Shown here: positions 14,776 to 62,645 of the stretch, in pieces
Position numbering within the stretch: the first letter of the stretch is position 1
Layout of the letters: each line of letters opens with the position of its first letter
Source: Eledone cirrhosa
Taxonomy: Eukaryota
Direction of reading: 5' to 3'
Assembly (NCBI GenBank): GCA_964016885.1
Contig: OZ024742.1
Coordinates: forward strand, 256,742,001 to 256,806,000
DNA length: 64,000 bases
The notes under the pieces: generated by a model
Databases searched by the model: none
The model's input: only the letters and a program-made list of their open reading frames with translations
What the model was told of the DNA's origin: nothing
Translations under genes and position numbers: made by a program

Positions 14776-17700
14776 AGAAATTGGAATAAATGCTCTGAAA
14801 TAGCGATATATATGTGAATTTAGACATAGAATATTCGAAAATATTCTGTATGTTTATAATAAACATTTTGAAGACCTAATCGCTATAGAATAGAATACGT
14901 CACGTATTACAATTAGATTCTCGATAAAAGCAAGGGAAGTAATCTACGCGTTTCATTCTTGTTAGAAATCTTCAGGACTACATATCCAGTGCTTTTATCG
15001 AGAATGACACAGCTAGAGACTTATAGAATACTTAGCTGTGTACAGGAACTGGTTTGAAAGAGCGGTTGCCGGTCCGGCAGAAATTAGAAATTGGAATAAA
15101 TGCTCTGAAATAGCGATATATATGTGAATATAGACATAGAATATTCGAAAATATTCTGTATGTTTATAATAAACATTTTGAAGACCTAATCGCTATAGAA
15201 TAGAATACGTCACGTATTACAATTAGATTCTCGATAAAAGCAAGGGAAGTAATCTACGCGTTTCATTCTTGTTAGAAATCTTCAGGACTACATATCCAGT
15301 GCTTTTATCGAGAATGACACAGCTAGAGACTTATAGAATACTTAGCTGTGTACAGGAACTGGTTTGAAAGAGCGGTTGCCGGTCCGGCAGAAATTAGAAA
15401 TTGGAATAAATGCTCTGAAATAGCGATATATATGTGAATATAGACATAGAATATTCGAAAATATTCTGTATGTTTATAATAAACATTTTGAAGACCTAAT
15501 CGCTATAGAATAGAATACGTCACGTATTACAATTAGATTCTCGATAAAAGCAAGGGAAGTAATCTACGCGTTTCATTCTTGTTAGAAATCTTCAGGACTA
15601 CATATCCAGTGCTTTTATCGAGAATGACACAGCTAGAGACTTATAGAATACTTAGCTGTGTACAGGAACTGGTTTGAAAGAGCGGTTGCCGGTCCGGCAG
15701 AAATTAGAAATTGGAATAAATGCTCTGAAATAGCGATATATATGTGAATATAGACATAGAATATTCGAAAATATTCTGTATGTTTATAATAAACATTTTG
15801 AAGACCTAATCGCTATAGAATAGAATACGTCACGTATTACAATTAGATTCTCGATAAAAGCAAGGGAAGTAATCTACGCGTTTCATTCTTGTTAGAAATC
15901 TTCAGGACTACATATCCAGTGCTTTTATCGAGAATGACACAGCTAGAGACTTATAGAATACTTAGCTGTGTACAGGAACTGGTTTGAAAGAGCGGTTGCC
16001 GGTCCGGCAGAAATTAGAAATTGGAATAAATGCTCTGAAATAGCGATATATATGTGAATATAGACATAGAATATTCGAAAATATTCTGTATGTTTATAAT
16101 AAACATTTTGAAGACCTAATCGCTATAGAATAGAATACGTCACGTATTACAATTAGATTCTCGATAAAAGCAAGGGAAGTAATCTACGCGTTTCATTCTT
16201 GTTAGAAATCTTCAGGACTACATATCCAGTGCTTTTATCGAGAATGGCACAGCTAGAGACTTATAGAATACTTAGCTGTGTACAGGAACTGGTTTGAAAG
16301 AGCGGTTGCCGGTCCGGCAGAAATTAGAAATTGGAATAAATGGTCTGAAATAGCGATATATATGTGAATATAGACATAGAATATTCGAAAATATTCTGTA
16401 TGTTTATAATAAACATTTTGAAGACCTAATCGCTATAGAATAGAATACGTCACGTATTACAATTAGATTCTCGATAAAAGCAAGGGAAGTAATCTACGCG
16501 TTTCATTCTTGTTAGAAATCTTCAGGACTACATATCCAGTGCTTTTATCGAGAATGACACAGCTAGAGACTTATAGAATACTTAGCTGTGTACAGGAACT
16601 GGTTTGAAAGAGCGGTTGCCGGTCCGGCAGAAATTAGAAATTGGAATAAATGCTCTGAAATAGCGATATATATGTGAATATAGACATAGAATATTCGAAA
16701 ATATTCTGTATGTTTATAATAAACATTTTGAAGACCTAATCGCTATAGAATAGAATACGTCACGTATTACAATTAGATTCTCGATAAAAGCAAGGGAAGT
16801 AATCTACGCGTTTCATTCTTGTTAGAAATCTTCAGGACTACATATCCAGTGCTTTTATCGAGAATGACACAGCTAGAGACTTATAGAATACTTAGCTGTG
16901 TACAGGAACTGGAATTTCTGCCGGACCGGCAACCGCTCTTTCAAACCAGTTCCTGTACACAGCTAAGTATTCTATAAGTCTCTAGCTGTGTCATTCTCGA
17001 TAAAAGCACTGGATATGTAGTCCTGAAGATTTCTAACAAGAATGAAACGCGTAGATTACTTCCCTTGCTTTTATCGAGAATCTAATTGTAATACGTGACG
17101 TATTCTATTCTATAGCGATTAGGTCTTCAAAATGTTTATTATAAACATACAGAATATTTTCGAATATTCTATGTCTATATTCACATATATATCGCTATTT
17201 CAGAGCATTTATTCCAATTTCTAATTTCTGCCGGACCGGCAACCGCTCTTTCAAACCAGTTCCTGTACACAGCTAAGTATTCTATAAGTCTCTAGCTGTG
17301 TCATTCTCGATAAAAGCACTGGATATGTAGTCCTGAAGATTTCTAACAAGAATGAAACGCGTAGATTACTTCCCTTGCTTTTATCGAGAATCTAATTGTA
17401 ATACGTGACGTATTCTATTCTATAGCGATTAGGTCTTCAAAATGTTTATTATAAACATACAGAATATTTTCGAATATTCTATGTCTATATTCACATATAT
17501 ATCGCTATTTCAGAGCATTTATTCCAATTTCTAATTTCTGCCGGACCGGCAACCGCTCTTTCAAACCAGTTCCTGTACACAGCTAAGTATTCTATAAGTC
17601 TCTAGCTGTGTCATTCTCGATAAAAGCACTGGATATGTAGTCCTGAAGATTTCTAACAAGAATGAAACGCGTAGATTACTTCCCTTGCTTTTATCGAGAA

Positions 17701-17799
17701 TCTAATTGTAATACGTGACGTATTCTATTCTATAGCGATTAGGTCTTCAAAATGTTTACTATAAACATACAGAATATTTTCGAATATTCTATGTCTATA

Positions 17800-17803
<4 letters not shown>
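14776..17803. repeat. 310-bp tandem array (about 6.9 units plus about 2.9 inverted units), one HHR per unit: candidate non-LTR retrozyme
   Basis: Unit starts at 14776, 15086, 15396, 15706, 16016, 16326, 16636; inversion at 16912/16913; (AT)n on both sides. Confidence 0.95.
17017..17059 (+). ncRNA. Minimal type I HHR of the 310-bp unit (also 17327, 17637 on +; 14939-14981 + n*310 on -)
   Basis: gtagtc-CTGAAGA-tttct aaca agaat-GAAAC-gc-GTA-gattac; palindromic stem III ACGCGT. Confidence 0.9.
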
Positions 17804-17894
<91 letters not shown>

Positions 17895-20060: not shown

Positions 20061-21022
20061 TAAACACTCCGTAATACAGAAGGATCAGGAATTAAGTTTC
20101 TTCAACAATTCTTCCATAACTCGTAGAGTAACCTCTCACCGAACGTCAACCATATCCAGTGTAGTAATTAACCATTACTACATCTAGGATAATCCTATAC
20201 CTAAATATATATATATATATATATGTATTTATTAAAATAACAGATTAAAGTTTAAGCAAAGAATCGCTGCTTTCACCCTTAACGGGATCTTCTGAAACTA
20301 ACAAAGTCAATCTGTAAACGCACAAGTGGATATTTAAAAAAACGTTGCAACCGGAGGAAGACAGGTAGACGATACTTTGGTTCGTGGAAACGCTCCCTGG
20401 CAAATAACGGGAAAAAACGAATATAATACGTCATTAATAGGAGCGGTGAAAAACAATTACGCGCAAAGACAGAACCACGTTTATGCTATAAAAGAGGTCG
20501 TAGACTAATGTTCCCTTAGGTGGTTTATAGAGACGTTCTCTGGCAATGAAACGAAGATAATATGTCATATGTGGAGCGTGGAGAACAATTGCACGCAAAG
20601 ATAAACCACGTAAATTGTACAGCAGAAGTCGTAGTCTAAAATTCTAACTAGGAGACCGAATGAATCTCCGCTTCAGAGTTAAGAACAAAGTAAATAAATA
20701 CGATACAGAGGTAATAGAAATTAAATAAATACATGCACGCATACAAATATGTACATACACAAGCATACACGAAAACACTTACCATAGGTATACAAAACCA
20801 CGCACATATAAATATGTGTGTTTGTGTGTGCGTGTATACAAATAAATAAATAATTAAATAAACGTATATAAATAAATAAATACATATATAACAAGCGTAC
20901 GCACATATCTACATGTAAATATATATATATATATATATATTCATATGTATATATATATATATATATATATATTCATATGTATATATATATATATATATAT
21001 TCATATGTATATATATATATTC

Positions 21023-21129
<107 letters not shown>

Positions 21130-21187
21130 CATATGTATTTATATATATATATATATGTATTTATATATATATATATATATATGTATT

Positions 21188-21303
<116 letters not shown>

Positions 21304-21329
21304 TATTTATATATATATATATATATATG

Positions 21330-21380
<51 letters not shown>

Positions 21381-21385
21381 GTATT

Positions 21386-21416
<31 letters not shown>

Positions 21417-21417
21417 G

Positions 21418-21454
<37 letters not shown>

Positions 21455-21464
21455 GTATTTATAT

Positions 21465-23112
21465 ATGTGCGTTTTTCACCGCTAGTTGACTCCTTTGCCG
21501 CCAGGATAAAACTCGTTGACGACGTAAACTCCATTCCACTTATTCTAGTAGGCTTTTATATTTATATGTGAGCTGATAGAGTACTGTCTAAGGATTTACA
21601 GAAACCCATGAAGCTAGATTTAACACCTTTCTAGTGGGTCCGGGTATGATTTTACATTCATTTAAATTATTGACGTATTGTTTTATTGATATTTTTTATC
21701 TGTTTGGCCCGAATCTTCCTTTATCGATTTTAATTCGTATGGTTGATTGTAGACTTGTTCTATATGTGACGGTATTTTAACGATAGTTATAGCTCTGATT
21801 CATCTGAATTATTGAGCCCTCTGCCGCTCATATCGGATTTCGTTTTTCGTTAACTCGTGCGCCGATTTTTCGATACTCGATCTTTCTAATATATTTAGCT
21901 CTGGACATAGCTATCCACCAGTTAATTTTATTGCTCATATTTTGTCGATTCTATTGAGTGATGAATAGCTTTTGTTTTATTTTAACATGTCTATTGAGCA
22001 CTCTAATTCGATATGTGTATTTCCACATTCACTCGAATTATTTTCGCGGATATAGGGGTCATCTCCCTTGTCTAATGCCATGTGCGTTTTTCACCGCTAG
22101 TTGACTCCTTTGCCGCCAGGATAAAACTCGTTGACGACGTAAACTCCATTCCACTTATTCTAGTAGGCTTTTATATTTATATGTGAGCTGATAGAGTACT
22201 GTCTAAGGATTTACAGAAACCCATGAAGCTAGATTTAACACCTTTCTAGTGGGTCCGGGTATGATTTTACATTCATTTAAATTATTGACGTATTGTTTTA
22301 TTGATATTTTTTATCTGTTTGGCCCGAATCTTCCTTTATCGATTTTAATTCGTATGGTTGATTGTAGACTTGTTCTATATGTGACGGTATTTTAACGATA
22401 GTTATAGCTCTGATTCATCTGAATTATTGAGCCCTCTGCCGCTCATATCGGATTTCGTTTTTCGTTAACTCGTGCGCCGATTTTTCGATACTCGATCTTT
22501 CTAATATATTTAGCTCTGGACATAGCTATCCACCAGTTAATTTTATTGCTCATATTTTGTCGATTCTATTGAGTGATGAATAGCTTTTGTTTTATTTTAA
22601 CATGTCTATTGAGCACTCTAATTCGATATGTGTATTTCCACATTCACTCGAATTATTTTCGCGGATATAGGGGTCATCTCCCTTGTCTAATGCCATGTGC
22701 GTTTTTCACCGCTAGTTGACTCCTTTGCCGCCAGGATAAAACTCGTTGACGACGTAAACTCCATTCCACTTATTCTAGTAGGCTTTTATATTTATATGTG
22801 AGCTGATAGAGTACTGTCTAAGGATTTACAGAAACCCATGAAGCTAGATTTAACACCTTTCTAGTGGGTCCGGGTATGATTTTACATTCATTTAAATTAT
22901 TGACGTATTGTTTTATTGATATTTTTTATCTGTTTGGCCCGAATCTTCCTTTATCGATTTTAAATCGTATGGTTGATTGTAGACTTGTTCTATATGTGAC
23001 GGTATTTTAACGATAGTTATAGCTCTGATTCATCTGAATTATTGAGCCCTCTGCCGCTCATATCGGATTTCGTTTTTCGTTAACTCGTGCGCCGATTTTT
23101 CGATACTCGATC

Positions 23113-23120
<8 letters not shown>
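21465..23120 (+). repeat. 615-bp tandem array (about 2.7 units), one variant HHR per unit
   Basis: Unit starts at 21465, 22080, 22695; flanked by (AT)n. Confidence 0.95.
21511..21645 (+). ncRNA. Type I HHR with variant core UUGACGA and long stems II/III (also 22126, 22741)
   Basis: actcg-TTGACGA-c-gtaaactcc..ggatttac-a-GAAAC-cca..ctaga..tctag-tgg-GTC-cgggt. Confidence 0.7.
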
Positions 23121-23150
<30 letters not shown>

Positions 23151-23151
23151 G

Positions 23152-23230
<79 letters not shown>

Positions 23231-23368
23231 TAGAAAGTGAGGTTTTTTTTTAAAAAATGAAAAATAACCGAGGTGTCCTACACGAGTGAAAGTATAAAGA
23301 AAAAGAGATGAAATCGAAAATGCAACTGAAGTCTTATTTTTATTAAAAATATATATATTTATTTTGTT

Positions 23369-23406
23369 CCTTTACCGGTTTCGCAGTTCTTCTGCTTTTC
23401 AAAAGG
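23369..23406 (-). ncRNA. Minimal HHR, U3-A8 variant, in a dispersed repeat of about 200 bp (second copy 33830-34045)
   Basis: cctt-TTGAAAA-gcag aagaa ctgc-GAAAC-cg-GTA-aagg; all three stems pair. Confidence 0.75.
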
Positions 23407-23470
23407 TGAGTTGAGATGGAGGGTCTGTGGTTTTTATATACATATGTATTTATATATATATATATATATA

Positions 23471-25358
23471 TAAACGGAAAAAATGAAACGATATTTCATT
23501 TCCCACACTTAGTACGGCTGTTACTTAAATATAATTATGTACACGTACATACATATATGTATACCGACGTACAGTAGTATGTATATATATATATATATAC
23601 ATACATGCACACATATATATATGCCCGTATGGATTCACCGAACATTTATTATAATGCTCGGTGTGTTTGTAAACAAACATACCGTATTAAGCCGTAGTGT
23701 CTAGCAACCACCGTTGCTCGTTTGTTCAACACTGACAAAGGAACGCTGTACTAGTTTCAAGCTTGTTAGCTATCGTCAGCAACGTATACCTTCCTGCCAG
23801 ATTGTTGAACGTATATACTTACCTTATGCATATTAACGGCTGAGTAGCCCAATTTGCATATCGAGTGGGTTAATCGGCCGGGTGCACCGAAAACGATAAA
23901 CGGAAAAAATGAAACGATATTTCATTTCCCACTCTTACTACGGCTGTTACTTAAATATAAGTATGTACACGTACATACATATATGTATACCGACGTACAG
24001 TAGTATGTATATATATATATATATACATACATGCACACATATATATATGCCCGTATGGATTCACCGAACATTTATTATAATGCTCGGTGTGTTTGTAAAC
24101 AAACATACCGTATTAAGCCGTAGTGTCTAGCAACCACCGTTGCTCGTTTGTTCAACACTGACAAAGGAACGCTGTACTAGTTTCAAGCTTGTTAGCTATC
24201 GTCAGCAACGTATACCTTCCTGCCAGATTGTTGAACGTATATACTTACCTTATGCATATTAACGGCTGAGTAGCCCAATTTGCATATCGAGTGGGTTAAT
24301 CGGCCGGGTGCACCGAAAACGATAAACGGAAAAAAATGAAACGATATTTCATTTCCCACTGTTAGTACGGCTGTTACTTAAATATAAGTATGTACATGTA
24401 CATACATATATGTATACCGACGTACAGTAGTATGTATATATATATATACATACATGCACACATATATATATGCACGTATGGATTCACCGAACATTTATTA
24501 TAATGCTCGGTGTGTTTGTAAACAAACATCCCGTATTAAGCCATAGTGTCTAGCAACCACCGTTGCTCGTTTGTTCAACACTGACAAAGGAACGCTGTAC
24601 TAGTTTCAAGCTTGTTAGCTATCGTCAGCAACGTATACCTTCCTGCCAGATTGTTGAACGTATATACTTACCTCATGCATATTAACGGCTGAGTAGCCCA
24701 ATTTGCATATCGAGTGGGTTAATCGGCCGGGTGCACCGAAAACGATAAACGGAAAAAATGAAACGATATTTCATTTCCCACTCTTAGTACGGCTGTTACT
24801 TAAATATAAGTATGTACACGTACATACATATATGTATACCGACGTACAGTAGTATGTATATATATATATACATACATGCACACATATATATATGCACGTA
24901 TGGATTCACCGAACATTTATTATAATGCTCGGTGTGTTTGTAAATATCGTTTCATTTTTTCCGTTTATCGTTTTCGGTGCACCCGGCCGATTAACCGGCA
25001 CTTACTTAAATGTAAGTATGTGTGTATACGTACATACATATATGTATACAGTCGTACAGTAGCATGCATATATATATATATATATATACATACAGGTACA
25101 CATACATATATGCACGTATCAGTTTAGCAGACGCTTATTATAACGCCGCTTTGTTCGTTTGTAAACAAACTGAACAGCCTGAATTTTTATGCCGTACGGT
25201 GCTAAGGCAACCACGTCACCTTTTTGTTCAACACTGACACAGGAACGATGTACTAGTTTGAAGCTTGTTAGCTATCATCAGCACCGTATACCCATCTGCC
25301 AGATAGTTGAACGTTCGAAAGTATATAGCTCACTCAATATGCAAATTATGTGTACCTG

Positions 25359-25436
<78 letters not shown>

Positions 25437-25545
25437 TGCTACTGTACGTCTGTATACATATATGTATGTACGTATACACACATACTTACATTTAAGTAAG
25501 TGCCGTATAAGAGTGAGAAATGAAATTTCGTTTTCATTTTTTTTT
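23471..25545 (-). repeat. About 425-bp tandem array (about 3.5 units), short inversion, then a diverged subfamily copy; one HHR per unit
   Basis: aaacggaaaaaatgaaacgatat at about 23472, 23898, 24325, 24748; inversion at about 24944-24995; diverged copy 24996-25340 and inverted 25435-25545. Confidence 0.9.
23744..23784 (-). ncRNA. Minimal type I HHR of the 425-bp unit (also 24170, 24593; mutated copy near 25245)
   Basis: cgttg-CTGACGA-tagct aaca agctt-GAAAC-ta-GTA-cagcg; palindromic stem III ACTAGT. Confidence 0.9.
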
Positions 25546-25565
25546 CAACTATATATATATAAATA

Positions 25566-26666
25566 TATGTATTCCACATTTTCCCGAATATTTTTCGCGG
25601 ATATAGAGGTTATCTCCCTTGCTGAATTCCATGTGCGTTTTCAGCTGAGGTTGTGCTTTTTCATTCGTTCGGACAAAAGCTCGTTGATAAAGTAATTCCT
25701 GTCGTTGATAAAGTAATTCCTATAAGTCTTATATTTTTTATGTGGGCTGATAGTGGGCGGTTTAAGGATTTACAGAAACCCAAGAAGCTAGATTTATCAT
25801 CTTTCTAGCGGGTCCGGGTAAGCTTTTTACATTCTTATGATTTATTGATTTATTGATATTTTATCTGAGTGACCCGAATCTTCCAGATCGTAATTTTTCG
25901 GTCGTATGGTTGATTTTAGACATGATCTATGTGTGTTGGTATTTTAACGATAGTTATAGCTCTGATTTATCTGAATTATTGAGCCCTCTGCCACTCACAT
26001 CAAATTTTGTTTATCGTGAACTCGTGCGCCGATTTTTCGATACTCGATTATTCTACTATATTTAGCTCTAGACTTAGCTATTGACCAGTTAATTTCATCG
26101 TTCATTTTTTGTCGATTCTATTGAATGATGAATAGCTCTTGTTTATTTTAACATGTCTATTCAGCACTCTTATTCTATATGTGATTTTCCACATTTTCCC
26201 GAATATTTTTCGCGGATATAGAGGTTATCTCCCTTGCTGAATTCCATGTGCGTTTTCAGCTGAGGTTGTGCTTTTTTATTCGTTCGGACAAAAGCTCGTT
26301 GATAAAGAAATTCCTGTCCGCTGCTCCCTAGAAGTCTTATATTTTTTATGTGGGCTGATAGTGGGCGGTTTAAGGATTTACAGAAACCCAAGAAGCTAGA
26401 TTTACCATCTTTCTAGCGGGTCCCGGTAAGCTTTTTACATTCTTATGATTTATTGATTTATTGATATTTTATCTGAGTGACCCGAATCTTCCAGATCGTA
26501 ATTTTTCGGTCGTATGGTTGATTTTAGACATGATCTATGTGTGTTGGTATTTTAACGATAGTTATAGCTCTGATTTATCTGAATTATTGAGCCCTCTGCC
26601 ACTCACATCGAATTTTGTTTATTGTGAACTAGTGCGCCGATTTTTCGATACTCGATTATTCTACTA
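25566..26666 (+). repeat. Diverged subfamily of the 615-bp repeat (about 1.8 units); HHR core UUGAUAA at 25679-25819 and 26294-26427
   Basis: Collinear with 21465-23120; gctcg-TTGATAA-a-gtaattcc..ggatttac-a-GAAAC-cc..gctaga..tctagc-gg-GTC-cgggt. Confidence 0.85.
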
Positions 26667-26692
26667 TATATATATATATATATAAATATATG

Positions 26693-26724
<32 letters not shown>

Positions 26725-26902
26725 AATATATGTATATATATATATGTATATATAAATATATGTATATATATAAATATATGTATATATATATATATATATA
26801 AATATATGTATATATATAAATATATGTGTATATATATGTATATATATAAATATATGTATATATATATATATAAGTATATGTATATATATGTATATATATA
26901 TG

Positions 26903-26947
<45 letters not shown>

Positions 26948-26960
26948 GTATATATATATG

Positions 26961-27011
<51 letters not shown>

Positions 27012-27017
27012 GTATAA

Positions 27018-27058
<41 letters not shown>

Positions 27059-27112
27059 TAAGTATATGTATATATATGTATATATATATGTATATATATG
27101 TATATATATATG

Positions 27113-27246
<134 letters not shown>

Positions 27247-27509
27247 TGTATATATTTATATATATATATTCATGTTGAAAGTTCGTATTTCTAAAGAAAT
27301 ACGGGATGTTTATGGATACACGTTTAGAAAGCCCAAGATATGCAAAATGTGGGAGTTATCTCCCTCTGGTGGTGTCCGTCAGAAGCGAGGGGGCAACCAT
27401 CAATGTATTTCGAACCTAACTGATCCTTATGAGGACGACCCTCCCACATTTGCATCTTCTTTACTTAAAAACAGGCGAGTATATATAGTGTTCACCTCTC
27501 TCTCTCTCT

Positions 27510-34980: not shown

Positions 34981-35062
34981 TATAATCAAAGTTTAGCAAA
35001 TAGTGAAAAAGTTTTAAAACAAATTTTAAAAGGTTTACTGTACCTATATATATATATATATA

Positions 35063-35508
35063 TAACGAAGGAAATGTGGTAAGGAACCAGGTGGACCACA
35101 ACGCACCAAAGTACTCAATACTTAGGGTAGTAGAGTGGGTAATAGGAACGAGTAGGACCCCGACGGCTGAGCTCAAGCCGTTTCGACGGCTAATTCTGGA
35201 CTAAAAGAATTAGTCCAGAATTAGCCGTCGAAACGGGTTGAGCTCAGCCGTCGGGGTCCTACTCGTTCCTATATATTTATATATATATATATATATAACA
35301 AAGGAATTGTCGTAAGTAACCAAATGGACCATAACGCACCAGACTACTCTATACTTAGGGTAGGTAGTAGAGTGGGAAATAGGAAAATATATGACACCGA
35401 CGGCAGAGCTCAAGCCGTTTCGACGCCTATTTCAGGGGACTGAAATTTCACGTCCTGAAATAGCCGTCGAAACGGCTTGAGCTCTGCCGTCGGGGTCATA
35501 CTTTTTCC

Positions 35509-35510
<2 letters not shown>
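35063..35510. repeat. Two adjacent related fold-back palindromic elements containing the 3' half of an HHR
   Basis: Palindromes 35142-35272 and about 35380-35510; GAAAC-ggc ttgagctc(a/t) gcc-GTC-ggggtc. Confidence 0.7.
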
Positions 35511-35540
<30 letters not shown>

Positions 35541-40546: not shown

Positions 40547-40712
40547 ACCCACTCTCACTAAGCATGCAACTAATACTATTTATAACTTGTACTCCTGCGT
40601 AGTCTGTATTTTTATTGTATTCTGAACTATATATATATACAATAGAAAAGGAGGGAACATAATAATAGTACCACTGATGATGCTGCAGATGTGCAACGAA
40701 ATATCTTTGATA

Positions 40713-40780
<68 letters not shown>

Positions 40781-50857: not shown

Positions 50858-53011
50858 TTTGCTGTGGAAAAATGTTTGGAGATGATCATTGAGAGTGAGG
50901 TGGAGTTCTGCGACGTCGACACAGACGAACTGGGCCTCCTACTCAGACTTACCTACCACACTGACTACCTAGACAGCCATGACCTTAGATGTTTCTGCCC
51001 TAGTAGACCCATAAGAGGTAGACCCCCCCATCGTAATCTCAATGGGAAAAAAGACTCCCATGGGAAGGTGGATTAGGTGGACCAAAGCTATACGTACCTC
51101 CCAAAACAATGATCAGGTAAGAAAAATGGTCGCACATGCAATAGGGGCTAGTATCAAAACTACCCTCCAGGGCCACATATTCAAGTTCAACGAGAAGATC
51201 TACACCCAAAATGAGGGAGCAGCCATTGGCTTCAGCATAGCTGGTGATGCTGCCAACCTTTTTATGGTATGGTGGGAAAGGAGACTTAAATATCTCCTTA
51301 ATGAGAGCTCCATAGACCCATCATGTACTCTCGTTATGTAGACGATATCAATATAGTTATAAGAACATCCCCACTAGAGAGCACTAACAAGTTTGATTTA
51401 GAACGTAGCACAATGGAAAGCATCCAGCAGATAGCTAATTCCATACACCAGAGTATAACTGTAACTATCGACTACCCTTCCAAACACCCTAACAATAGAC
51501 TACCTGTATTAGACACGGAACTCTGGATTAACACTATAGACGAGAGAGCACAAATCCTCCACTCACACTATGCTAAACCCATGGCCTCCAAATACCTGAT
51601 ACTCAAAAACTCAGCAATGTCCAGTAGTGGTAAGTTTAATATTCTGATCGCAGATTTGGTACCAGTGATGAAGAATGTGTCCCACATGTGCGACCCAACA
51701 GAAATGGAAAGACACATCCAACACTTCATCAACCGCATGCAGTTATCTGGCTACAACAAAAGAGAAAAAAGTCAGAGTATACGAAGGAGCCATGGAGAAG
51801 TATAAGACCCTCATAGAACAGGACATGAAAGGAATTTTCCCATTATACAGGAGCAAATCATGGAATAGCTTAGATAGGGCTAGACATAAGATAGTGAAAG
51901 CCACCTCATGGTACGACAACCAGAGATACCAGAGTGTCATGTTTGTGGACGCTACCCCTGGAGGGAAATTAGCTAACCAGTGTAGAAAGGCCCTGAGAAA
52001 GACCCACTTAAAGATTAAGGTGGTAGAAAAGCCAGGAACCACCATAAAATCCCTGATCAGCAAAACCTACCCTTTTAAGAAAACCTACTGTACTAATAGG
52101 AAATGTATCATATGTAAGGTAAACTCCCGGATAAACTGTAAAACTAGAAACGTAGTCTACAGCATAAGATGTACAGAGGGTACTTGCAGAAACATGACAA
52201 CGACATACATAGGCGAGACAGCTCGTAGCATAGGTGAAAGGATAGACCAACACTGGTGGGAACTAAAAGGACGAAAAAACGGCTCAGTACTATACGAACA
52301 TGCTAGACAACAACACGACGGAAACATTGACAACATAGAAATTAGAATAATATCTAAACATAGAAATGACCCAGCAGATAGGCAAATCAGAGAGGCCAGT
52401 GAAATAGAACTTAGAAGGCCAAGACTAAACAGAAAGAATGAATGGAATAACAACAACACCCAAACAAACAACACTGACCTAAGAGAAGTATAAATAAATA
52501 AATAGATAAATAAATAAATAAATAAATACATACACAAGCACAATAACAACAAACACATATAAACACACACTAGTAAACATAGAATACATTAACCAATACA
52601 CAGTCACCCAATCACGAACACACAGCAAACAAAACACTATACACACACACAAACGCATGCGCAAAGAAGACAAAATAAAATAAACAAAAAAACAAATTAA
52701 TAAATAAATATCTAAACAGACTAAATAAAGATGGCGTAGACATACAATGTAACGGGAGGAAACAATAGCACCACTGACGTTGTTGCAGATGTGCAACGAA
52801 AGAACTTCGAGAAACTATATATATGTGTTTGTGTCTATATTGTATCTGTATTATTTTTGACCGTTGGTCAGTCAATGGCAACATTGAGGACGGAATATAT
52901 TAGATAACCGATATAAAAGACACAGAGCGAAAAGCGAAAACCAACCAAACAGTGAGTGTGTTCTGTTATTAATTCTGGCAATATTACACAAATATGACCC
53001 TCCCCAAGTAT

Positions 53012-55951: not shown

Positions 55952-56249
55952 ACATGAGAAGAAAGAAGAATACTGCGTGGTTTGTACATGGGTTACATAT
56001 GATAAAAATAGTCATTCGTCAGTGATTTTACAACCATCATTGGTATTTCATCGCATATGTGTGTGTGTGTGTGTGTCTGTGTGTGTGTGTGCATGCGCGC
56101 GCGCGTGTGTATATGTCTGTATGTGTGTGTGTGTGTGTTGGGATGGGTGTGTGTGTGTATGTGTGTGTGATATAATAAATACGGAGACCAAAATCAGGAA
56201 TTCCTCTAATAGGCTGAATGGAGAATTTTTTGCTGAAACTTAAATCTGT

Positions 56250-56300
<51 letters not shown>

Positions 56301-58116
56301 TTTTCAGGGTGACTCTTTATCACCGCTTTTACTCTGCATCGCACTTATACCATTAAGTAAAATGCTCAATGAAACAAAACATGGATATAGAGTCTATGAC
56401 AAAACCATTAATCACCTGTTCTACATGGATGACCTGAAACTATTTGCAAAAAATGATGAACAATTGCAAGGGCTATTATCCACTGTGAAGCAGTTCAGTG
56501 ATGACATTAAAATGGAGTTTGGACTGGATAAATGCGCCAAAGCAACGTTCACCAGAGGAAAGCTGCTGAAGAGTTCAGACATTAATCTTGATCGGAGGAA
56601 CGTGATAAGAGAGCTTGATCAAGAACAAACTTACAAATATCTAGGTGTTTGTGAAGGAGACGGAATCAAGCACTCGACAATGAGGGAAAGGATAAGGAAG
56701 GAATGTTACCGCAGAGTCAGAGCAATCTTAAGAACGGAATTGAATGCAAGGAATAGGATCGATGCCATAAACACGCTTGCCATACCAGTAGTAACCTACA
56801 GTTACAATGTCATCAACTGGTCAAGCACAGAGATCCGTAGGCTCGATACAAAAATCCGAAAATTCTTAACCATGCACAGAATGCATCACCCTAAGGCAGA
56901 CATAGATAGAATATATCTCCCTAGGAAAGAAGGAGGACGTGGGTTAATCCAGTTAGACATTGCGTTGAAAACTGCAACAATTGGATTATCCACATATCTA
57001 AGGGAATCACATGATTGGATGATCAAACTCGTTTTGAAACACGAAAGCACCAAAAGATCATATTCCATTACAAAAGATGCACAAAGATACAGTAATGGAC
57101 TACAAATTTCAGAAGTCCCATTTACTGCTGAAATGGAAAACACAGAAAAAGCAAAGCAGGTAAAAGTAACTGCAAAGAAAGAACTGCTACAGAAACTGGC
57201 TAAGAAATGGCAAGAAAAGCCTCTGTATGGAAAATACCCAGAGCGAGCTAACAATCCTGATGTTGACAAAACTTTAACCCATCAGTGGTTGGCATCCTCT
57301 GGACTGAAATCGGAGACTGAAGGACTGATTATATCCGCACAAGATCAGTGTCTGCCAACAAAAAATTACCAAGCCAACATAATAAAAAATGGGTGCAGCC
57401 CATTATGCCGTGTATGCAAAAAACAACCAGAGACCATTGACCATATAATTTCAATGTGCAGTCCTATAGCTCCAACCGAATACCTAAACAGGCATGACAG
57501 AGCTGCACAATACATACATTGGATAATGTGTAAGCATTTTGACCTGCCCCATCAAAAGAATTGGTGGGAGCATCAACCACCTCCCATACTTGAAAAAGAT
57601 CACATCTCAATCTTGTGGAACTTTAGCATCCAAACAGACCGAAAAATAGATGCAAATAGACCTGATATAATATTGAAGGACTTCAAAAAGAGGGTATGCC
57701 TGCTAATTGATATGTCTGTTCCCTATAGACAAGAATGTATCTATAAAAACATTTGAAAAATTGAGCAAGTATAAGGACCTGGAGATAGAAATTGGAAAAA
57801 TGTGGAAATTGAGAACTAAAACAATACCAGTGGTTGTAGGCGCTCTGGGAATGATACCTAAAGGGTCTAAGGATTACTTATCGCAAATCCCAGGAAACCC
57901 GCGTATAGGAGAAATACAAAAGATAGTACTAATGGGAACTGCCCATATACTAAGGAAGATTCTGTCAATATAAGTACATCACAAGTCTAAACACTAAAGA
58001 TGCATGTGTGAGTATGTATGTTCTTTCTTGAACATGGCGGATCTTGATGTCTCTTGAGGTCACTGGTAGTGACTTGGTGATAATTCGTATGAACATAAAG
58101 CAAGATAAATGCAACT

Positions 58117-58117
<1 letters not shown>
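56301..58117 (+). mobile_element. R4/Dong-like non-LTR retrotransposon, 5'-truncated, inserted in (TAA)n
   Basis: FQGDSLSP, HLFYMDDLK, GGRGL, CRVC..ETIDHIISMC, RHD, RPDII..IDMSVP, KYKDL (restriction-like endonuclease); frameshift near 57722. Confidence 0.9.
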
Positions 58118-58171
<54 letters not shown>

Positions 58172-58174
58172 TAA

Positions 58175-59430
58175 AAAATTCTTAACCATGCACAGAATGC
58201 ATCACCCTAAGGCAGATATAGTTAGAATATATCTCCCTAGAAAGGAAGGAGGACGTGGGTTAATCCAGTTAGACATTGCGTTGAAAACTGCAACAATTGG
58301 ATTATCTACATATCTAAGGGAATCACATGATTGGATGATCAAACTCGTTTTGAAACACGAAAGCATCAAAAGATCATATTCCATTACAAAAGATGCACAA
58401 AGATACAGTAATGGACTACACATTTCAGAAGTCCCATTTACTGCTGAAATGGAAAACGCAGAAAAAGCAAAGCAGGTAAAAGTAACTGCAAAGAAAGAAC
58501 TGCTACAGAAACTGGCTAAGAAATGGCAAGAAAAGCCTCTGTATGGAAAATACCCAGAAAGAGCTAACAATCCTGATGTTGACAAAACTTTAACCCATCA
58601 GTGGTTGGCATCCTCTGGACTGAAATCGGAGACTGAAGGACTGATTATATCAGCACAAGATCAGTGTCTGCCAACAAAAAATTACCAACCCAACATAATA
58701 AAAAATGGATGCAGCCCATTATGCGTGTATGCAAAAAACAACCAGAGACCATTGAACATATAATTTCAATGTGCAGTCCTATAGCTCCAACCGAATACCT
58801 AAACAGGCATGACAGAGCTGCACAATACATACATTGGATAATGTGTAAGCATTTTGACCTACCCCATCAAAGAATTGGTGGGAGCATCAACCACCTCACA
58901 TACTTGAAGAAGATCACATCTCAATCTTGTGGAAATTTAGCATCCAAACAGACCGAAAAATAGATGCAAAAAGACCTAATATAATATTGAAGGACTTTAA
59001 AAAGAGGGTATGCCTGCTAATTGATATGTCTGTTCCAATAGACAAGAATGTATCTATAAAAACATTTGAAAAATTGAGCAAGTATAGGGACCTGGAGATA
59101 GAAATTGGAAAAATGTGGAAATTGAGAACTAAAACAATACCAGTGGTTGTAGGCGCTCTGGGAATGATACCTAAGGGGTCTAATGATTATTTATCGCAAA
59201 TCCCAGGAAACCCGCGTATAGGAAAAATACAAAAGATAGTACTAATGGGAACTGCCCATATACTAAGGAAGATTATGTCAATATAAGTACATCACAAGTC
59301 TAAACACTAAAGATGCATGTGTGAGTATGTATGTTCTTTCTTGAACATGGCGGACCTTGTTGTCTCTTGAGGTCACTGGTTGTGACTTGGTGATAACTCG
59401 TATGAACATAAAGCAAGATAAATGCAACTG
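58175..59430 (+). mobile_element. Second, shorter R4/Dong-like copy in tandem
   Basis: Highly similar to about 56860-58117; own frameshifts; bounded by (TAA)n. Confidence 0.9.
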
Positions 59431-59446
59431 TAATAATAATAATAAT

Positions 59447-62400
59447 GTTTTCTTTATTAACCACAAGGGTTTATATAAAGTAGACATTAAGGACAGTACA
59501 GGACAATGCAGGACGGTACAAATGGGCATTTCTGCGTGTAAAAAAAACAGAGGTTGTAATAAAATAACAAAGAAAAATTCCCCAATAGGGGGGAGACTTC
59601 CGAGGGACATTTGTGGAGAAAGCCCATTAAAAGACCACAGTGACCCTGACCACCAGGGCAAGTGCCCTCTCCCAGTTTTCCACCTTTAATTTACAGACAC
59701 ATACTCAGAGTAGGCCCATTCACTCGGGCCATACTTGCTTCTTTCACCCATCTTTCAACAAAATGCTGGGAAGAGAGCATTTCCCTCTCTACCCTGATTT
59801 TCCTTTTCAAAAGAATTTGAAAAAGTTAATCAGGGCATCACCGAAGTAGTAAGTGCTCGTCTTCATCCCTTTCAAACGTGTCCACCATACTATCTCTTTC
59901 GTCATGGCTATCAGACAGATAAAAACTGCCTGCCCTTCCCGGCTAAAGGAAGAGGGCGGGGAAATCCTTACAATGGACTCAGCTGATAGCCGGGTCCGCC
60001 CTACACGTGACAGCAGGTGTTCGACATAAACCCACGAGTCAGCACTGCTCGGACAATGGACGAGTGCGTGCTGGACGGTTTCGTCGCCCTGCGCGCATCT
60101 CGGACATGCCCGGCTGACGGCACCTCCATGCCTGTAGAGTTTATCCCGAACTGGCAAAGCTCCCCGGTAGCACTGCCAGGCCAGTGATTTCTGGAAGTTG
60201 TCCATAGGCCCCGGCCCGAAAGTCCGTCCGAAGAGATTGGCTAGTTGATTTTCGTCGACGTCTAGAGTTTCTTCAAGTACGTCATCGCTCTTCCCCTCCA
60301 CTAATCCTCTATAGAACGCCAAGGTGGAGTTTCCACGGATCACATTGCCCGATTGATCGAGGGCTGTGAGAGCCTGAAGACATTCCAGTCTTTAAGCGTT
60401 TCCTCTCGGTCTTCGCTTGACACAGGACTGCAGCTCTGTCAAGGAGACGAGCTGGGGAAAGACGTGTCTAGCATATGGCGACCACACCTGTTCACCGTCG
60501 AGGAAGAGGTGGAGATGTCGTAGCATGAGTGCGTGTCTGCGCATCATCAGCCACGGCATGCCCAGCCCTCCACGTAGCGGGTGTTGACAGCAGATGGACC
60601 TCCTGACCATCGGAGCGCGAGCCTTCCACAAAAAGCGAAAGAGCAAACGCTCCAGCGCAGTTAGGACGGTCTTGGGACAAGGAACGACGGTCAGGCGGTA
60701 GTAGATGACGGACGCGATGTACGCGTTAGCCATCTCCGCTCGACCTTTCAGGGATAGCTTCCTCTCCGCCCCTCTCTGGGTGAGAGAAGCGGATAGCTTC
60801 CTCTCCGCCCCTCTCTGGGTGAGAGAAGCCACCCTGCTCGTCACCTCGTCCCAGTTATTGTCCGTCTGGAGGTCCGGACCGAACCAGACCCCTAGCAATT
60901 TAACGGGTCCGTCCGTCAAGCGCCCGACGACGCTGTTGGACGGCATGGACCTGCCTCTCCAGGTACCGAACTGCAGGCCCACTGACTTTTCCTGGTTGAT
61001 CATTGCTCCTGTCACCGCTTCGTATTCTCTTAGTGTAGTGCCGATCACCTCGATGTGTTTGGCGTTCGACACCACTACGGTGACATCGTCCGCATATGCT
61101 GACATGGATCTTCCGCATCCTAGTTCGCACGGGACCCCACTCAACGTCTCCAGTTTGTGCAGTAATGGCTCGAGAGTCAATACGTACAAGAGGGACGAGA
61201 GGGGACATCCGTGGCGGACCGAGCGCATGATGTTGAACGGTTCCGAAAGGTGACCGTTCACTCTCACCACAGAGCAGATGTCGCTGTGCATGGCAGCGAT
61301 CCACCCTCTGAAGACGGACCCAAATCCAGCCGCCTTCTGGACTGCCGCTAGGTAACGATGGTCGACCCTATCGAAAGCTTTCGACTGATCTAAATTGATC
61401 AAGGACTCACCCGTGCCAGGTTGCCTAGCTACTCTCTCTACAATGTATCGCGTGAGGTGGAGGTTGTCGTGGATGGATCTGTCGGGAATGGCGCATGTCT
61501 GCGCCACTCCCACCAGACCACCAACGACATGCGCCAACCTCTTTGCTAGCACCTTGGCCAAAATCTTGAACTCTGTGTTCAGCAGAGTTATGGGCCTGAA
61601 ATTATCTATGATATCCCCATTGTTCAGATCCTTTCTCAGCAGCGCCACCGCTCCTCGGCTCACAGAGCTGGGAATTCTCCCGTTCTGTTGCCAGTTGCAG
61701 TTGACGTCCGCCCAGAGGCCCCCGAACAAGTCTGGCATTTGTACGTATAGTTCATAGGGTAGACTATCCAAACCAGGCGATTTACCCTTTGTGCGGCCCA
61801 TCATTTCCTCCCGTACTTCAGCGGCTGTTATCGGCTTTTCGCAACACTCCGCCTCAGTGGCCGAGAGCCGCGGAAGTCCGTCGAGGTAATCACTAAAGTC
61901 CATCCCTCGGTCCGGCCCGCCACTGCCCCCGAACAGCTGTGCGAAGTGTCGCTGAAAAGCTTCACACATTTGCCCGGGATCGAGTAGCATGCGCCCGTCG
62001 TGGTCCACTAAATACCGGATCGTGGCTTTGTTGCCACGACGCGCCTCCGCCACTTGGGCCCATTGAACGGCTTTCGTCCCCTCGTGTCTGAGAGCACGCA
62101 CCCCAACTCGGACAACGCAGTCTTCGTGCTTTGTATTGAAGAATTGGTCAAGGGCCAATTTCGCCGCAAGTACGTCGGTAGCGATGCCTTTGCTAAGCGC
62201 CTCGTCTAATTTTCTAACTAATTCTCCCTCTGCTCTATTTTTCTCTGTGGCTACAGCTTTACTAAACCTAATGGACTCTATTCTAATTGCGCTTTTCAGA
62301 GCAAACCACCACTTGTTGTTGACGATGGCCCCCGTCAACGCCTGCTTAACTAGTTCGCTAATCCGGTCTCTGTAGGCCTTGCGCGCTGGTAAGTACGCGT

Positions 62401-62645
62401 TTAGCTTCCAGTAGCCGGGTCCTCGTCAATGAAGCCTATCTAAGTCAAGCACACACATCACGAATTTGTGGTCCGTGTAGCTGACTATATAGAATTGTGG
62501 ACAGCATATGCTAGACCTATCTATTTCCCTACAAAATACTCTATCTAGATATGATCTGGATGACCCTATGCGATTAGTCTAAGTCCACATTGGCACATCC
62601 GGGAAATCCAATCGGTACCTGTCAGACAGTTCAAAACCTGTCAGA
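59447..62645 (-). mobile_element. Tx1/L1-clade LINE ORF2, 5'-truncated and degenerate
   Basis: End of APE domain (SYLDR, TDH), GKSPGLD.LPYELY, FRPITLLN, LDQSKAFDRVDH, GCPLS, AYADD, CPRC..ETVQHALVHC; AATAAA at the 3' end. Confidence 0.9.

Follow-up and report, generated by a model that had tools for sequence, protein, structure and literature searches.

The stretch of Eledone cirrhosa DNA analysed here (assembly GCA_964016885.1, contig OZ024742.1, forward-strand positions 256,742,001 to 256,806,000; 64,000 nt, hereafter "the window") is AT-rich animal DNA with many (TA)n tracts. Among the matches listed for a retroelement protein of the window, the relative with the highest identity was from Octopus (65% over 55% of the query). 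We focused on positions 21465–26666, where a non-coding repeat with a 615-bp unit and a GC content of 0.35–0.37 carries a motif resembling a hammerhead ribozyme. A first-pass annotation, made from the sequence alone, had described this span as a 615-bp repeat concealing an oversized, non-canonical hammerhead. The 615-bp period and all the hammerhead elements it named were found where it had placed them, and a single repeat family is indeed involved; however, the span is not one block but two insertions, A and B, split by an unrelated 426-bp repeat family (23470–25542). The first two units of the A insertion are identical and the third differs by one base, while A and B share 84% identity (505 of 599 aligned bases). 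The coordinates are given in Table 1.

Table 1. Features of the 615-bp repeat family in the window (positions counted from the first base of the window)
Feature	Position	Strand	Remarks
(TA)n tract	20905–21466	.	5' junction of A insertion
Subfamily A insertion	21465–23118	+	2.7 head-to-tail 615-bp units, 5'-truncated, with the family's fixed 3' end
Hammerhead copy 1, variant type I	21511–21645	+	predicted cut after C17 at 21640
G2.1 of copy 1	21515
U3–A9 of copy 1	21516–21522		G8 at 21521
Extra C of copy 1	21523
Helix II of copy 1	21524–21599
Extra A of copy 1	21600
GAAA of copy 1	21601–21604		followed by helix III
5'-end pile-up zone	21649–21659	+	9–19 nt after predicted cut; start of 17/100 genomic insertions
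Internal ATATAT	21889–21894	+	just after fixed 3' end, 248 nt downstream of cut; putative priming site for nicked (TA)n
Hammerhead copy 2	22126–22260	+	predicted cut after 22255
Hammerhead copy 3	22741–22875	+	predicted cut after 22870
(TA)n tract	23119–23230	.	3' end of A insertion
Subfamily B insertion	about 25563–26663	+	about 1.8 units, fixed 3' end as in A
Hammerhead B1	25679–25819	+	predicted cut after 25814; core UUGAUAA (U3–A8); helix II with a 21-nt duplication
Hammerhead B2, decayed	26294–26427	+	stem I and pair 10.2–11.2 broken; site after 26422
(TA)n tract	26665–27269	.	3' end of B insertion

A long-armed, non-canonical hammerhead motif

In copy 1, we confirmed stem I (actcg/cgggt), the core UUGACGA, a helix II closed by gtaaactcc/ggatttac, the GAAA, and a long helix III, together with the GUC sites after positions 21640 and 25814. 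The core is as first annotated, except for two insertions that had gone unmentioned, one base following A9 and an A separating C11.1 from G12. The annotation had also proposed a diverged subfamily that combines a UUGAUAA core with preserved helices; this holds for B1, which folds, but not for B2, in which stem I is broken. In minimum-energy folding, the A copy and B1 formed the three-way junction, and B2 did not. The family consensus consists of UUGANRA, an extra base, the pair G10.1–C11.1, an extra A, and GAAA, with a helix II of about 75 nt and a helix III of about 34 nt. The motif has three helices around the core with stem I open, which is the type I arrangement, and it departs from the canonical CUGANGA with its C3–G8 pair and uninterrupted core.

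A relaxed type I descriptor matched only 1 of 1000 shuffled units. In the window it gave 18 matches, of which four lay in the 615-bp family, ten in a 310-bp array, three in the 426-bp array, and one elsewhere. Rfam returned no match at E ≤ 10 within 21465–23120, as expected from the earlier suggestion that standard descriptors would overlook the motif, and no hammerhead was present among the 150 of 272 Rfam matches listed for the whole window.

Inspection by eye revealed a purine-rich internal loop in helix II (21550–21580) with possible tandem G·A pairs, which is kept across subfamilies and may serve as a tertiary or protein contact. A distal stem I also looked possible on this inspection. 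A second or scrambled hammerhead in the unit was considered and rejected, as another CUGAUGA was, by eye, not conserved across subfamilies. A search for an ancestor with a short helix II yielded 12 pattern matches against four in controls, which were attributed to deletions or chance. The consensus fold of the whole unit was weak, and the underlying alignment contained flanks. Circular monomers gave folding z-scores of −1.4 to −5.3 in the sense and −0.7 to −3.5 in the antisense orientation, values that are no more than suggestive with only 12 shuffles each.

Conservation, covariation, and the 3–8 pair in genomic copies

Genome-wide searches returned 3,694 matches to a motif within the hammerhead, 7,317 to a downstream motif, and 2,839 to the exact 3' terminus, each against none in a reversed control; counted as exact 3' termini running into TA, the family has no fewer than 2,839 insertions. 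The monomer length, measured from one cut site to the next, was 604–624 nt (37 distinct monomers), and the median identity among 30 representative units, some of which included flank, was 71%. At least half of the sampled family words occurred in public sequencing runs under five organism labels from five studies. No RNA run was among the public runs listed as holding family words; run X15, which had been guessed to be RNA, yielded one 158-nt contig on the unit and short pieces with C-less loose ends, and was set aside as probably converted DNA. Some members depart from the usual layout: in a subfamily with units of about 572–580 bp (L297, L152), some 30–40 nt after the cut site are missing, and in L299 the whole hammerhead is deleted. 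A relaxed helix III pattern gave 619 matches against 200 in controls, and the 15 loci fetched from these consisted of five family members and ten other repeats or open reading frame (ORF) fragments. In a metagenome scan with 120 pattern matches, the 80 with flanks were tested with a covariance model and none passed (best E-value 0.42).

To avoid circularity, core bases were counted in the first 100 insertions listed by their 3' terminus alone, 56 of which extend past the motif. U3, U4, G5, A6, A9, G10.1, G12, A13, A14, A15.1, and C17 were invariant in all 56 copies, as was the A between C11.1 and G12, and G2.1, C11.1, and U16.1 were each present in 55. Position 7 was free (T in 22, G in 16, C in 9, and A in 9), position 8 was always a purine opposite U3 (A in 34, G in 22), and the base inserted after A9 was A in 46, C in 9, and G in 1. 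A pattern that excluded only U and A at pair 10.2–11.2 recovered 557 diverged copies against one control; this pair, U–A in the window copy, was C–G in 29 of the 30 diverged copies fetched.

The helices were compared in a sequence-only alignment of 32 copies, in which 84.8% of cells could pair, versus 78.1% after shuffling and at most 41% when slid, and 17 of 37 pairs had changed on both sides. Helix II and the distal part of helix III covary, stem I shows one-sided variation only, and the proximal part of helix III is nearly invariant, although the search pattern itself had set some of its bases. When 44 distinct copies were aligned by fitting to a model, the results agreed, but such an alignment is biased toward the structure. 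Helix covariation (in helices II and III) and a fixed core, two of the features whose absence the first-pass annotation had named as fatal to its proposal, were both present across copies. Judged from these sequences, the fold is almost certainly hammerhead-derived and under selection, and self-cleavage at the GUC is a highly probable prediction.

To follow position 8, we built a tree with positions 7–9a removed. It contains six switches between A and G, at least five of which are forced by supported branches, and the switches run in both directions within the family. The window haplotype, with G8, sits among otherwise identical A8 copies. Among 18 A-type arrays, 11 have A8 and seven have G8, and A was found at position 22136 in contigs from 4/4 outside runs. 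Because A8 is the state in most A-type arrays and in all four outside runs, the G8 of the window is derived, and it is recent yet still spreading. The earlier suggestion that UUGAUAA restores the 3–8 pair was thus correct in that a U3–A8 pair is present, but had the order reversed, the G8 of the window being a recent change from A8. Read from the sequence, U3 pairs with either purine at position 8. Relatives with C3 gave 71 matches against four in controls, and 70 of the 71 have A8.

Insertion ends and the explanations weighed

The ends of the insertions have a consistent anatomy. The 3' end position was shared by 18 of 20 scored A arrays, whereas the 5' ends were scattered. At the 3' end, 241–248 nt downstream of the cut, insertions pass into (TA)n at the point where the unit sequence reads on as ATATAT or CTATAT, and 71 of 92 resolved 5' junctions touch TATA. 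Insertions longer than one unit made up 42 of 100, and those longer than two units made up 12 of the 24 A-type insertions versus 2 of the 76 others. Target-site duplications were not discernible in the TA tracts; an 8–11-nt match occurred at 5 of 92 junctions, consistent with chance. By the features that sequence can show, the family is a retrozyme: its non-coding units stand in tandem, every one of them has a type I hammerhead, and they have dispersed by retrotransposition without long terminal repeats (LTRs), as seen in the fixed 3' end, 5' truncation, and TA targets. It also has the partial tandems, 5' truncation, and microsatellite targeting of a Penelope derivative, but not the frequent inverted 5'-truncated arm.

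The 5' ends pile up just past the predicted cut. Starts at +9 to +19 account for 17 of 100 insertions, against 1.1 expected (P = 4e−15), while the best other 13-nt window contained four, and 69 of the 100 insertions extend beyond the zone. TA microhomology does not account for the pile-up, because it persists after restriction to TA/AT-overlap sites (12/25) and the zone has no 3-nt overlap site. Termination in the zone occurred in 17 of 86 first passes but in only 2 of 41 later passes (Fisher P = 0.033). Array L319 starts exactly at the predicted cut, and no other hairpin of the unit has a comparable 5'-end peak. The 5' junctions of R2 are reported to track the ribozyme cut site (Eickbush 2013, as far as covered here). 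From this analysis, the pile-up is likely a cleavage footprint, produced by run-off from the ribozyme-cut 5' end.

The explanation that we favor, and regard as likely, is that the 615-bp unit is a non-coding mobile repeat, probably a non-LTR retrozyme, whose RNA is predicted to cut itself at GUC with a long-armed type I hammerhead and would be turned back into DNA by a reverse transcriptase (RT) borrowed from another element, probably one of the Penelope type. Transcripts of a tandem copy would be cut one time in each unit; the length and stability of helix III suggest that the hammerhead acts as a monomer. Some of the 615-nt monomers would then be ligated into circles; a circular intermediate is on balance probable. 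A partner endonuclease would nick (TA)n, and the DNA end would prime synthesis at the internal AUAUAU, some 245 nt downstream from the cut. On linear cut RNA the enzyme would run off near the 5' end and leave stubs of about 230 bp, whereas on circular RNA it would keep going and generate arrays. Units within one array share a haplotype, as a circular template predicts, although homogeneous source arrays or later conversion could equally have produced this.

Several observations weigh against this explanation. The folding energy of the motif is ordinary (z = −0.78 for A and 0.09 for B1), and all three helices reached a probability above 0.5 in only 10 of 32 single copies, many copies being old and mutated. 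Core invariance is modest evidence by itself, since 62% of the 214 columns downstream reach at least 98% conservation too; what persuades is the free N7 inside a fixed core. The pair counts take no account of relatedness among copies, and the structure they test came from these same sequences. The C3·A8 subfamily, in which the 3–8 pair is broken, has also spread; this either makes catalysis less credible or indicates a buffering of the core by the long arm. The pile-up ends 9–19 nt before the cut is reached, at a place that matches the edge of the possible distal stem I. A footprint in the same zone past the canonical cut site was absent from two control families (0/50 in the 310-bp and 0/49 in the 426-bp family); these controls neither confirm nor refute it, because their hammerheads have a 4-nt helix III region, a kind reported to cut poorly. 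The A array of the window carries a variant in two of its three units, which one pass around one circle does not explain. No collinear RT/endonuclease ORF was found upstream of the unit in the fetched loci, and inverted 5' arms, which are typical of Penelope insertions, are scarce, as described below.

Part of this evidence would also fit a hammerhead relic that no longer cuts and is kept as a protein-binding or polymerase-pausing structure, with arrays arising from long uncut array transcripts and the pile-up marking a stall. The two inserted core bases, the spread of the C3·A8 and U3·G8 lineages, the position of the pile-up near the 3' edge of the possible distal stem I, and the reported cleavage of only one of nine predicted Xenopus retrozymes (Li, Clavereau and Pollet 2026, bioRxiv 10.64898/2026.07.22.740005, in the part covered here) all agree with such a relic. 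We nevertheless consider it improbable: all catalytic bases and C17 are fixed while N7 drifts, the other hairpins of the unit lack a comparable peak, and termination is concentrated in the first pass, as it would be at a physical RNA end, although the same could follow if the structure unfolds once that pass is over. A start signal in place of a cut would make the unit a repeat resembling a short interspersed nuclear element (SINE), with an internal start just after the motif, the pile-up marking the promoter, and the hammerhead incidental. The TCATT/TTACATT at +13 to +24 is initiator-like, but several ends lie at +9 to +12, upstream of either candidate start (L331, L316, L398), 69 of 100 insertions extend past the zone, and the motif is conserved across units of 71% median identity, so we give this explanation very little weight. 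Satellite DNA spread by recombination, with the hammerhead as a chance fold, would account for the near-identical units within arrays and for the non-significant fold z-scores of the motif. It is effectively refuted by the end structure, since insertions at thousands of TA sites share one 3' end and are truncated at the other, and is further opposed by the single descriptor match in 1000 shuffles and by the covariation; its probability is negligible.

The identity of the partner enzyme is a separate matter, and a Penelope-like element is a reasonable, rather than strong, expectation. A cleaving retrozyme could instead be mobilized by a (TA)n-targeting long interspersed nuclear element (LINE), or by Penelope elements of a clade whose insertions lack inverted arms, and not by the partner of the neighbouring minimal-hammerhead retrozymes; this alternative, which differs from the favored explanation in the partner only, seems rather unlikely but deserves serious attention. 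Inverted arms were found in 1 of 100 insertions (L058; 8 of the 100 were not followed to the 5' end), compared with 32 of 50 and 22 of 50 in the canonical 310-bp and 426-bp families, respectively, in the same genome and at the same target. The 3' untranslated region (UTR) of the abundant RT/GIY-YIG family of the window (784-aa open frames) is unrelated to the unit, and no homologous terminal repeat was found in 30 copies of one autonomous family, the only one examined in depth. Against a different partner stand the hammerhead style, whose extra base after A9 and U3 variants match published Penelope terminal repeats, the reported preference of Octopus Naiads for (TA)n, the one inverted arm in L058, and the same restriction to a single autonomous family. 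Penelope parentage of the repeat is likely though unproven, with one Penelope hallmark, the inverted arms, missing.

Taken further, these observations can be read, tentatively and with less than even confidence, as the traces of a distinct, long-lived lineage of monomer-acting retrozymes. A conserved domain in the 75-nt helix II would buffer a relaxed core in which the 3–8 pair may be U–A, U·G, or C·A, the RT would leave no inverted arms, unlike the partner of the dimer-dependent minimal hammerheads, and the genome-wide pile-up of 5' ends would be a fossil trace of germline cleavage by the ribozyme. If this is correct, ribozyme activity could be scored from DNA alone through the pile-up. Apart from this reading, the insertion ends offer a testable handle on the in vivo cutting of retrozyme hammerheads. 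The ends also bear on how retrozyme RNA is primed and copied, from the internal AUAUAU to run-off from a cut end versus rolling around a circle. The family holds a natural allelic series at the 3–8 tertiary pair (U–A, U·G, C·A) inside one propagating lineage, and it shows that searches limited by size and based on CUGANGA miss families of thousands of copies.

Neighbouring repeats and comparison with known systems

The window contains further repeats with hammerheads. The 310-bp retrozyme-like array (14776–17812) has a canonical minimal hammerhead (CUGAAGA, GUA site) and consists of 6.9 minus-strand units back to back with 2.9 plus-strand units; its family has 1,178 exact 3' termini genome-wide. 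The retrozyme-like 426-bp family, which separates insertions A and B and lies on the minus strand, carries a minimal hammerhead (CUGACGA, GUA site), has 425 exact termini, and is accompanied at this locus by a short inverted piece and older fragments. A repeat inserted in TA at six places in the genome (L049, L107, L142, L435, L450, and L493), unrelated in sequence to the 615-bp family, has CUGAYGAC with a canonical C3–G8 core, a 40–50-nt helix II, an extra A before GAAA, a minimal palindromic helix III, and a GUU site. Because this repeat has them, the two inserted bases and the long helix II recur in the genome and tie the 615-bp motif to Penelope-type minimal hammerheads.

Autonomous elements are also present. 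A Penelope-type RT/GIY-YIG open frame of 692 aa (6662–8740, minus strand) belongs to the abundant family with 784-aa frames elsewhere, and the 3' UTR of this family has no recognizable hammerhead core and ends near TA. In a second Penelope-type element, present as fragments (51015–52840), the 3' end has a minimal hammerhead-like motif directly before (TA)n, and a related stub lies at 40661–40740. Two decayed non-LTR retrotransposons occupy 56218–59286 and 59807–62425: a tandem RT element preceded by (TAA)n, which we take to resemble R4/Dong, and a GC-rich RT element on the minus strand. A diverged 237–239-bp dimer lies between TA tracts at 35045–35536.

The published systems are compared here as far as the available portions of the cited sources describe them. 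Animal non-LTR retrozymes consist of tandem non-coding units with type I hammerheads and are expressed as circles (Cervera and de la Peña 2020, PMC7229834), and retrozymes have been proposed to derive from Penelope terminal repeats (Li et al. 2026). Like the metazoan elements, the 615-bp family is non-coding, low in GC, and free of LTRs, is arranged head to tail with a single type I hammerhead in each unit, and ranges from monomers to multimers. It differs in its UUGANRA core with two inserted bases, where theirs is CUGANGA, and in its helix II of about 75 nt and helix III of about 34 nt. The anatomy of its ends, with a fixed end at TA, piled-up 5' starts, and almost no inverted arms, was not found described for metazoan retrozymes in these portions. 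Expression, cleavage, and circles have been shown for metazoan retrozymes and are predictions for the 615-bp family.

The hammerheads of Penelope terminal repeats share with the family the extra base after A9, G10.1–C11.1, a short proximal stem I, and U3 cores. An extra base between 9 and 10.1 (in the consensus) and G10.1–C11.1 are the published Penelope signature (Cervera and de la Peña 2014, PMC4209133). In the alignment of that paper, U3–A8 cores occur in S. mansoni rows 3 and 4 and a U3·G8 core in Saccoglossus row 1, and AGAAA occurs in one of 56 rows (row 29), by its order a Cotesia bracovirus element, as assigned from extracted PDF text. Metazoan Penelope motifs have a helix II of 7–8 bp and almost no helix III, and need dimers, while those of fungi and protists, with their large helix III, act as monomers (PMC4209133). 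The 615-bp family, by contrast, has all the oddities together, a helix II five-fold longer, a stable helix III, and no ORF attached. U3–A8 covariation, tolerated core insertions, and a mismatched 10.1–11.1 pair have been described in natural hammerheads (Perreault et al. 2011, PMC3088659). The portion of that paper considered mentions neither an A inserted between 11.1 and G12 nor a position 8 that switches repeatedly between A and G within one propagating lineage.

Naiads have no canonical hammerhead, and those of Octopus are listed as preferring (TA)n (Craig et al. 2021, PMC8557442). The 615-bp unit shares with them (TA)n targeting, 5' truncation, partial tandems, and the lack of a canonical hammerhead; Naiads encode protein and often carry inverted 5' copies. 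The motif is not of the permuted form described by Eckert (2023, in the part covered). The papers listed on octopus and hammerhead ribozymes yielded no description of the 615-bp family, and no paper was found on this combination of hammerhead features, with Lünse et al. 2017, on Penelope-associated variants, lying outside the comparison and possibly containing them.

The first-pass annotation had proposed a new large retrozyme class. Its non-canonical type I hammerhead with covarying helices, in a tandem retrozyme-like unit missed by Rfam, is upheld; the new class is not, because the length of the unit falls within published ranges and U3–A8, U3·G8, and the extra bases each have precedent in the sources compared. 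Metazoan non-LTR retrozymes span 150 to more than 1000 nt (PMC7229834), and vertebrate retrozyme consensus lengths are 51–972 bp, with a mean of 650 in ray-finned fish (Li et al. 2026). Published variants, as far as these sources reach, cover each core deviation singly, and the 615-bp hammerhead is a new structural variant within known retrozymes rather than a new ribozyme class or size class.

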